DNA of 64,000 bases, from assembly GCF_003334305.1 (NCBI RefSeq), contig NZ_QOWS01000014.1; one strand, written 5' to 3'. This stretch comes from Escherichia coli. GTDB lineage: Bacteria > Pseudomonadota > Gammaproteobacteria > Enterobacterales > Enterobacteriaceae. Shown piece after piece: positions 42,404-42,496 of the stretch. Every line of letters starts with the position of its first letter. Within the stretch, counting starts at the first letter, position 1. The notes below the pieces were generated by a model that made no database searches, was not told where the DNA came from, and saw only the letters and a list, made by a program, of their open reading frames with translations. Made by a program: the position numbers and the translations under genes.

Positions 42404-42496
42404 CCTTCCAGGGTGAGGGCTGGGGTGAGGGTTAATGTTCGCACCAGTGCTGGCTGTTCCCCTCACCCTAACCCTCTCCCCAAAGGGGCGAGGGGA
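42404..42496. repeat. GC-rich interspersed palindromic repeat (boxC-like), composite copy B in the fepB leader
   Basis: Contains CCCCCTCTCCCTTCCAGGGTGAGGGCTGGGGTGAGGGTTAAT and, inverted, CCCCTCACCCTAACCCTCTCCCCAAAGGGGCGAGGGGAC; shares the core with copy A at 34984-35023. Confidence 0.7.

Follow-up and report, generated by a model that had tools for sequence, protein, structure and literature searches.

Results and Discussion

Genes and repeats at the two loci

We analyzed a 64-kb stretch of Escherichia coli DNA (hereafter, the window) that carries fepB, with the divergent gene entC upstream of it on the - strand, and the genes cstA and ybdD, both on the - strand. A sequence-only reading of the window had placed a GC-rich, BoxC-like palindromic repeat in the 5' leader of fepB and a second, inverted copy in the cstA-ybdD junction, and the gene positions uphold this setting. 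The features at the two loci are as follows.

34695-34892, - strand: ybdD
34925-34962, no strand assigned: REP, adjoining the BoxC copy but separate from BoxC; a 38-mer identical to 56858-56895
34969-35023, + strand: BoxC copy of the cstA-ybdD junction, with its triplex-motif part at 34987-35022; HPG1 no. 19 (Kaplan et al. 2016, PMC5100583)
35024-35071, + strand: spacer-like sequence and decayed second half (CCCCCCTCACTCT), up to the cstA stop codon
35074-37179, - strand: cstA
42334-42351, + strand: Fur box 1 of the fepB promoter (AAAATGAGAAGCATTATT); sequence quoted in PMC5020551, mapped here
42347-42349, no strand assigned: left TTA of a 3-bp direct repeat, a candidate target-site duplication or microhomology, from filled versus empty alleles
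42350-42535, + strand: inserted palindromic block of 186 bp, missing as a whole in short-leader alleles
42351-42525, + strand: predicted single long imperfect hairpin of the fepB leader RNA, from RNA and DNA folds
42397-42432, + strand: left BoxC/TMECO half, type B, K-12 TMECO 8 (CCCTCTCCCTTCCAGGGTGAGGGCTGGGGTGAGGGT); regular-expression match, entry 8 of Table 1 of Holder et al. (2015, PMC4666352)
42433-42458, no strand assigned: 26-nt spacer or apical region (TAATGTTCGCACCAGTGCTGGCTGTT), from the alignment
42459-42494, - strand: right BoxC/TMECO half, type A with one mismatch, TMECO 7, HPG1 no. 17
42550-42555 and 42563-42565, + strand: fepB Shine-Dalgarno (SD) sequence AGGAAG and GTG start codon, outside the hairpin

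Comparison of the window with itself confirmed that the core occurs at both loci in inverted orientation. The 21-mer CCTCACCCTAACCCTCTCCCC has exactly two sites, 35000-35020 on the - strand and 42461-42481 on the + strand, and no third site was found in the window even when up to three mismatches were allowed. The two regions form an inverted match of 52 nt with 87% identity (34969-35020 versus 42461-42512), by far the best inverted repeat of the 64 kb. The sequence-only reading had therefore found the right sites, with positions a few bases off. It had also recognized that the fepB copy is composite and includes an inverted half, but this half lies at 42397-42432 rather than at 42404-42445, and it had overlooked that the fepB repeat forms the middle of a longer palindrome, a block of 186 bp.

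Such a likeness might be put down to chance in GC-rich, low-complexity sequence, a reading for which the simple composition of the motif, and nothing else, speaks. However, the chance expectation for the 21-mer was 0 in 100 dinucleotide-preserving shuffles, against the two exact copies seen; a two-block BoxC pattern occurs three times in the window where 0 are expected; and homologous copies across genomes number in the thousands. The shuffle controls for the 21-mer and the two-block pattern rule out a chance similarity of the two sites, and we give this explanation no weight at all.

Identity of the repeat family

The BoxC repeat of E. coli was reportedly named in the early 1990s and is said to have been surveyed by Bachellier et al. 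Both the repeat family and the two loci are already in the literature; there are four descriptions of the family, each with a different name. According to Holder et al. (2015, PMC4666352), BoxC, known since the 1990s, was found anew as the 'potential intrastrand triplex' (PIT), which they renamed TMECO. In Kaplan et al. (2016, PMC5100583), these sequences are HPG1 and HPG2 (GGGAGAGGGTTAGGGTGAGGG and GGGAGAGGGCCGGGGTGAGGG, in the order of the two names), two G-quadruplex/hairpin motifs. Petrillo-type stem-loop surveys give BoxC as a sequence of 56 bp with 32 copies in K-12.

A regular-expression search with the TMECO consensus, CCCTCNCCC-N3-6-GGGNGAGGG-N3-GGGNGAGGG (PMC4666352), matched both fepB halves, at 42397-42431 (+) and 42460-42494 (-). 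The halves are identical, letter by letter, to TMECO 7 and TMECO 8 of Table 1 in that paper (K-12 624,579-624,614 and 624,676-624,641), and no difference was seen over K-12 624,579-624,676, which gives substance to the earlier 'BoxC-like' call. Supplementary Table S2 of the same paper locates TMECO 7 and 8 between fepB and entC, 67 and 130 nt from fepB. The pair also follows the published pairing rule, in which a type A half is joined to an inverted type B half: the loop of the right half is TTA (TAA on the + strand), as in type A, and that of the left half is CTG, which is listed as type B. The proposed relative at cstA-ybdD is borne out by the table of Kaplan et al. (PMC5100583), whose HPG1 members include both fepB-entC (midpoint 624,603) and cstA-ybdD (midpoint 632,058). 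A blastn search with the 186-bp block as query located a median of 16 places per genome in 5,426 complete E. coli genomes, so that a genome-wide copy count, which the earlier reading had called for, indeed shows a multi-copy family. Every BoxC copy examined is intergenic. Because of the consensus match, the identity with the K-12 table, the listing by Kaplan et al. and the multi-copy status, the assignment of the fepB and cstA-ybdD sites to the enterobacterial BoxC family (= PIT, TMECO, HPG1/HPG2) is secure.

Compared with classic BoxC (56 bp, an imperfect dyad, tens of copies), to which 42459-42512 and 34969-35023 correspond, nothing essential differs, except that the fepB form is paired and extended by outer arms to 186 bp and that the third block of the cstA-ybdD copy is degenerate. 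The fepB site resembles the PIT elements of Hoyne and Maher and the TMECO elements in its A + B pair rule, in its presence or absence among strains and in collapse of the 'palindrome effect' kind. Kaplan et al. (PMC5100583) proposed a regulatory switch between G-quadruplex, hairpin and duplex; the strain-variable insertion status of the fepB copy is not mentioned there.

We also compared the element with REP/BIME sequences, which are likewise intergenic palindromes, come in two subtypes that join as inverted pairs, and vary from strain to strain. REPs stabilize mRNA 3' ends. However, their consensus is a different one, a comparison of the REP consensus (GCCGGATGCGGCG...CGCCTTATCCGGCCTAC) with the BoxC element showed no similarity, and no RAYT-type transposase is known to be linked to BoxC. 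An Rfam search of positions 34000-44000 in E-value mode returned no family for the element, only sub-threshold matches to microRNA precursors of the generic hairpin kind. Literature searches on 'box C' together with BIME, RSA or IRU, and on the structure of the fepB leader, found nothing relevant.

Polarity and age of the insertion at fepB

Alignment of long and short alleles showed that the 186-bp block is missing cleanly in the short E. coli alleles L001-L003. The short allele has a single TTA at the junction (GCA-TTA-ACTTCA), and the long allele has two, one to the left of the block (42347-42349) and one to its right (42533-42535); the block thus comprises a body of 183 bp and the right TTA, with a junction that is ambiguous by 3 bp. 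Without 42350-42535, the leader reads GCATTAACTTCATTAATAAC. Fur box 1, which overlaps the fepB -10/-35 region (PMC5020551), ends in two T's with which the inserted block begins. An upstream open reading frame that runs across the insertion (42350-42559) was set aside as mechanical; its frame is not kept in E. whittamii.

The full-length or nearly full-length block was found in 2721-2726 of 5426 E. coli genomes, the figure of 2726 being the number of genomes in which 80% or more of the leader query is present. When all forms of the insertion are counted, 2,755 of the 5,426 carry it, including 29 with a collapsed, 75-bp-deleted form, and approximately 49% lack it. It is at least 99% identical in approximately 2,500 genomes, and in the K-12 strains the identity over the 186-bp block is 100%.

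Next, we compared fepB loci from 80 species. No strict TMECO motif was found upstream of fepB in these 80 loci, and the short leader was seen in E. albertii, in two other non-coli Escherichia lineages, and in Citrobacter, Salmonella, Klebsiella, Raoultella, Enterobacter, Leclercia, Kluyvera, Pluralibacter and Kosakonia. In the outgroups the promoter and the Fur box are conserved, with the Fur box approximately 30 nt from the start codon. Given that the outgroup loci have the short leader, the 186-bp block is a derived insertion. Moreover, the junction reads AACTTCA both in the short E. coli alleles and in the outgroups, as opposed to AACCTTA in the long allele; therefore, the short alleles are ancestral and not excision products. 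Holder et al. (PMC4666352) took absence of the element as loss or instability. At fepB, however, the outgroups indicate that absence is the ancestral state, so that a strain variability formerly interpreted as triplex-induced loss is better described as an old insertion polymorphism.

In E. whittamii we found the insertion at the same site, with the same flank, collapsed to approximately 109 bp. Its arms are 80.5% and 87.5% identical to those of E. coli, and third codon positions of fepB are 79.9% identical between the two species. The arms have thus diverged at an approximately neutral rate, which suggests that the insertion is about as old as the species split, or that it was exchanged long ago. 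An allele resembling that of E. whittamii was found in none of the 5,426 E. coli genomes, and a search for divergent alleles gave one metagenome match. On these alignments, the long/short polymorphism at fepB is old. In the B1-type strain O22:H8 154, the short allele is flanked on both sides by sequence with 100% identity to the window, which points to short recombination tracts that move alleles between lineages. Matches to the element occur in only 416 of 72,556 plasmid records and in 3 phage records, and these counts indicate that BoxC is chromosomal and not borne by mobile DNA.

Mode of insertion

The outer arms of the fepB block are inverted copies too. The pairs at alx-sstT, ygfF-gcvP and gldA-yijF have the two halves, the spacer and approximately 40 nt of the right flank in common with fepB, which suggests that the BoxC pair itself, of approximately 125-140 nt, is a repeated unit. 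Four 'single' copies of K-12 have only the core of approximately 50-56 bp in common.

These features raise the question of whether a transposase moves the BoxC pair as a miniature inverted-repeat transposable element (MITE), with TTA/TTA as its target-site duplication. Like ERIC/IRU and Correia elements, the fepB form is small, has terminal inverted repeats, would be co-transcribed in mRNA as a long hairpin and has filled and empty sites. Its 186 bp are palindromic to the ends (pairing over 42351-42525), in agreement with the size and terminal repeats of a MITE, and the filled and empty fepB sites differ cleanly, with a 3-bp direct repeat; pair, spacer and flanks recur as a unit at several loci, and the family is widespread and variable in copy number across the Enterobacteriaceae. 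However, fepB is the one clean site among the loci examined. No clean filled/empty site with a flanking duplication was found at gldA-yijF, alx-sstT, ygfF-gcvP, tauD-hemB or zntA-tusA; these five gave instead replacement by BIME or another hairpin, internal collapse or near-fixation, and the comparison of flanking duplications, which yielded TTA/TTA at fepB, was uninformative for the ygfF-gcvP alleles. The left outer arm of fepB has no other place in E. coli, a match of 3 bp is expected by chance about once in 64, and the near absence of the element from plasmids and phages also speaks against a MITE. To our knowledge, no insertion sequence is related to BoxC, in contrast to the parent elements of MITEs. 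On balance, transposase-driven movement of the pair seems to us improbable.

Decay of the insertion and BoxC at other loci

We found several deletion variants of the fepB insertion. O111 strains carry a 6-bp deletion, strain YZMc3-1 has lost 75 bp between two CCCTCTCCC blocks, and the collapse in E. whittamii is similar to this 75-bp deletion. The same 75-bp collapse as at fepB was found at alx-sstT in strain ECO20. These variants indicate, at the level of sequence, that the fepB insertion is worn down by deletions that join one internal CCCTCNCCC direct repeat to another, and they fit the 'palindrome effect' of Holder et al. (PMC4666352). The collapsed variants are still predicted to fold as hairpins. 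At other loci the BoxC element has been exchanged for different sequences: in most strains a BIME/REP pair fills exactly the BoxC slot at gldA-yijF, a different, terminator-like hairpin takes its place at tauD-hemB, and alx-sstT shows either collapse or replacement.

These observations bear on the proposal that a non-B structure of the DNA itself (an intrastrand triplex, a G-quadruplex/hairpin switch or a cruciform) stalls replication or repair and makes the site locally unstable, an instability that might even be selected as a source of variation. In each half, the three blocks of the triplex motif are found together with four G3 tracts whose loops are 3 nt long, triplex and G-quadruplex/hairpin signatures have been recorded in vitro (Holder et al. 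2015, PMC4666352; Kaplan et al. 2016, PMC5100583), internal deletions and allele replacement are common at all BoxC loci that we examined, and the block is predicted to fold as single-stranded DNA with -39.6 kcal/mol (z -4.18). However, Holder et al. (PMC4666352) saw no sign of a triplex when the DNA was duplex, nor in vivo by DMS footprinting. Presence or absence at fepB reflects an old insertion and not recurrent deletion, identity of at least 99% in approximately 2,500 genomes is unlike a strongly unstable site, and the deletions that we observed are those of ordinary slippage between direct repeats. In addition, such a structure would account for decay but leave origin and spread unexplained. 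We therefore consider this proposal quite unlikely.

Folding of the fepB leader RNA

Because it lies downstream of the promoter and ahead of the SD sequence, the block is presumably transcribed as part of the fepB leader. The sequence-only reading had expected stable RNA structures at both loci, and the folds agree. The fepB leader RNA (42351-42525) is predicted to form one hairpin of approximately 175 nt, with an MFE of -96.2 kcal/mol (z -4.63), and the cstA-ybdD junction folds with -85.2 kcal/mol (z -3.36). The leader folds as a single hairpin because the outer arms also pair.

We then calculated the accessibility of the ribosome-binding site with the partition function. The predicted unpaired probability with and without the block was 0.35 versus 0.34 for the SD sequence, 0.08 versus 0.08 for the start codon and 0.47 versus 0.47 for the region from -20 to +15. 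This equality suggests that the hairpin is an insulated module. Scans of both regions found no promoter or terminator inside the elements, although the promoter scan also misses the real, weak fepB promoter and is thus no guide to the transcription start.

Comparison of the outer stem between E. coli and the predicted E. whittamii hairpin showed that all eight single-sided transition differences at pairing positions (8/8) keep the pairing on the + (mRNA-sense) strand, where Watson-Crick pairs change into G·U pairs or the reverse, and that the other two differences are mismatches in E. coli and pairs in E. whittamii; this sign of covariation comes from two sequences, and the structure was predicted from the same two. 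On the mRNA-sense strand the outer stem contains G·U pairs and no A·C oppositions. A global palindrome alignment used for counting G·T versus A·C was poor and noisy, with approximately 50 Watson-Crick columns, and therefore we used MFE-based counts and strand energies. The fold energies of the two strands were as follows.

E. whittamii fepB variant: sense -47.9 kcal/mol, antisense -25.9 kcal/mol
O111 fepB variant: sense -80.0 kcal/mol, antisense -71.5 kcal/mol
E. coli fepB variant: sense -91.3 kcal/mol, antisense -86.6 kcal/mol
cstA-ybdD junction: sense -48.9 kcal/mol, antisense -39.8 kcal/mol

Since the sense strand has G·U but no A·C, it folds better in every fepB variant. In the other pairs, the sense advantage is reversed at alx-sstT, and the strands are equal at ygfF-gcvP and gldA-yijF. 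The G·U bias on the mRNA-sense strand may be a weak hint, the only one that we have, of a constraint or a regulatory role at the RNA level.

Regulatory element or passenger

The folds described above lead to the question of whether the hairpin has a function in the fepB leader. It might act as a 5'-end stem-loop that protects the mRNA from 5'-end-dependent decay, or as a long duplex that is cut by RNase III and tunes FepB relative to the rest of the Fur regulon. The predicted structures are very stable and non-random, and the hairpin begins a few nucleotides from the expected 5' end, at the edge of the Fur box/-10 region. The sense-strand-specific G·U bias, with pairing kept across the divergence of E. 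coli and E. whittamii, also favors a function, as do the hairpin retained in the collapsed variants, the better fold of the mRNA-sense strand at cstA-ybdD, and the age and intermediate frequency of the polymorphism.

However, every outgroup genus and approximately 49% of E. coli are without the element, and for this reason it is not needed for fepB regulation. Accessibility of the ribosome-binding site is predicted to be equal with and without the block, no terminator was found, and Holder et al. (2015, PMC4666352) summarize the experiments on PIT elements as showing no promoter, no terminator and no in vivo effect. The leader also does not behave as a conserved cis-regulatory RNA would, given its absence from the outgroup fepB loci inspected and from half of E. 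coli, and given that it corresponds to no Rfam family. Because the covariation comes from two sequences and the strand asymmetry is not seen in the three other pairs, we consider a functional leader hairpin unlikely. The effect on mRNA stability or on translation of the downstream gene, which the sequence-only reading had proposed, is neither supported nor refuted by our computations and, on this evidence, would be unlikely to be large.

We consider it probable that the BoxC pair of fepB is a passenger insulated by its own structure, a palindromic repeat that is selfish or neutral and not a dedicated regulator, and that the cstA-ybdD copy is a degenerate remnant. The insulation of the ribosome-binding site, the dispensability of the element in half of E. 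coli and in other genera, and the experimental summary by Holder et al. make the passenger reading the best supported one; we infer it from predicted structure and from dispensability. The full paired element (a type B half, the conserved 26-nt spacer, an inverted type A half and the outer arms) entered as one block where Fur box 1 ends on its 3' side, downstream of the Fur-controlled promoter and upstream of the ribosome-binding site. An ancestral leader with approximately 30 nt from the Fur box to the GTG thereby became the long leader of K-12. The autonomous hairpin of approximately 175 nt would leave the Fur box, the SD sequence and the start codon as before; Fur-box consensus matches, counted from the sequence, are equal in number in the long and short alleles. 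The insertion persists in approximately half of E. coli, is probably shuffled between lineages by homologous recombination, and is eroded by slippage deletions between the internal CCCTCNCCC repeats.

Against the passenger reading, persistence at approximately 50% since the species split could reflect balancing selection. The repeat might even have been domesticated: selection would keep the RNA hairpin, as the G·U pairs without A·C oppositions and the eight pairing-neutral transitions could suggest, and the long and short leaders would be functionally different fepB alleles held at approximately 50:50 in E. coli, with an insertion at least as old as the split of E. coli and E. whittamii. Under iron limitation, the two alleles might then differ in how stable the mRNA is or in how RNase III processes it. 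Connected with this is the idea that BoxC pairs are MITE-like mobile units that duplicate TTA. We regard domestication as a doubtful prospect, well below the passenger reading in probability.

What this analysis adds is modest, and consists of the boundaries of the 186-bp block, its overlap with Fur box 1, the ancestral absence and the age of the polymorphism, and the predicted insulation of the hairpin from the ribosome-binding site. The discovery value is small, given that both copies are already in published tables. For work on enterobactin transport, and for the use of the fepB/entC bidirectional promoter as an expression tool, it is relevant that K-12 owes its long fepB leader, and the published 'Fur box 1' its last bases, to an insertion that half of E. 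coli and all other enterobacterial genera do not have. The natural long and short alleles also offer a ready test of the influence of a 175-nt 5' hairpin on mRNA fate.

The cstA-ybdD copy

The part that the cstA-ybdD copy has in common with fepB is the right half, 42459-42494. The first two blocks of the consensus match in this copy and the third reads GGGTGAGGA, which explains why it is missing from the strict Table 1 of Holder et al. The spacer-like sequence beyond it ends in the decayed second half, which pairs with the intact half in the RNA fold. Judged by these features, the copy is a degenerate, partly decayed pair beside a REP in the intercistronic spacer. The REP (34925-34962) gave a sub-threshold match to naRNA4 in Rfam.

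The cstA-ybdD mRNA carries the C-rich complement of the BoxC copy. In a functional role here, the BoxC and REP hairpins would block 3' exonucleases and thereby set the cstA:ybdD ratio; we include this role in the low probability given above to a functional hairpin. Among strains, the junction occurs in at least four allelic states, with BoxC and REP present or absent independently of each other.

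Replacement and probable recombination at BoxC sites

We also analyzed other sites in E. coli that carry BoxC pairs. In 641 E. coli genomes, the slot 3' of the gldA terminator (gldA-yijF; L007, 560-790) is occupied by a BoxC pair; most other E. coli genomes have a BIME/REP pair there (loci L090 and L091), with boundaries identical to those of the BoxC pair. On sequence comparison, this slot looks like a hot spot at which different repeat families swap in for one another. Between alx and sstT, some strains, such as E. coli strain E09 (L096, 170-780), carry an unrelated GC-rich segment of approximately 400 bp in place of the BoxC pair.

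A short fepB leader was observed in E. coli O22:H8 strain 154 (L002, 280-935). In this strain, 458 bp of fepB are identical to the long-leader window, and the promoter is also identical except for one base. The presence of a short leader despite this near-identity on both sides implies that a very short recombination tract, limited to the leader, would have been involved.

The inserted block and related repeats in other species

An ORF of 69 codons (42350-42559, + strand) covers the entire inserted block upstream of fepB. Its possible start codons are TTG at 42350 and ATG at 42353, and its TGA stop lies 4 nt upstream of the fepB GTG. The frame is kept in the 6-bp and 75-bp deletion variants of the block, and the E. 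whittamii counterpart ends in a different frame. We consider that the ORF is probably mechanical.

In the fepB leader of Escherichia whittamii (L010, about 9890-10000), the orthologous insertion has collapsed to 109 bp. The predicted fold is a nearly perfect hairpin of -47.9 kcal/mol (z -6.9), in which the sense strand has seven G·U pairs; the antisense strand has none.

Many triplex-motif repeats were also found in the ent-fep clusters of Enterobacter, Leclercia, Lelliottia, Kluyvera, Silvania and others (L021-L088), at recurring intergenic sites around locus positions 4,700-5,000 and 15,100-15,500. They often form head-to-head pairs or short arrays that include partial units, whereas the pairs in E. 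coli are arranged tail-to-tail.

Other elements in the window

Between entD and ybdK, the region 57635-58607 contains a unit of approximately 504 bp in two tandem copies (97% and 95% identical), each with a full-length Rfam match to sok (86 bits; gathering score, 59). These matches identify the region as a hok/sok toxin-antitoxin locus that has been duplicated in tandem.

sok antitoxin RNAs between entD and ybdK
57880-58035, - strand, sok antitoxin RNA, copy one (full-length Rfam match)
58383-58539, - strand, sok antitoxin RNA, copy two (full-length Rfam match)

An identical REP of 38 nt occurs at 34925-34962, after the cstA-ybdD BoxC, and at 56858-56895, after fepA. The former matches naRNA4 in Rfam below threshold; the latter adjoins an above-threshold match to the sRNA ES036 (CssrF) at 56894-56935 (40.5 bits).
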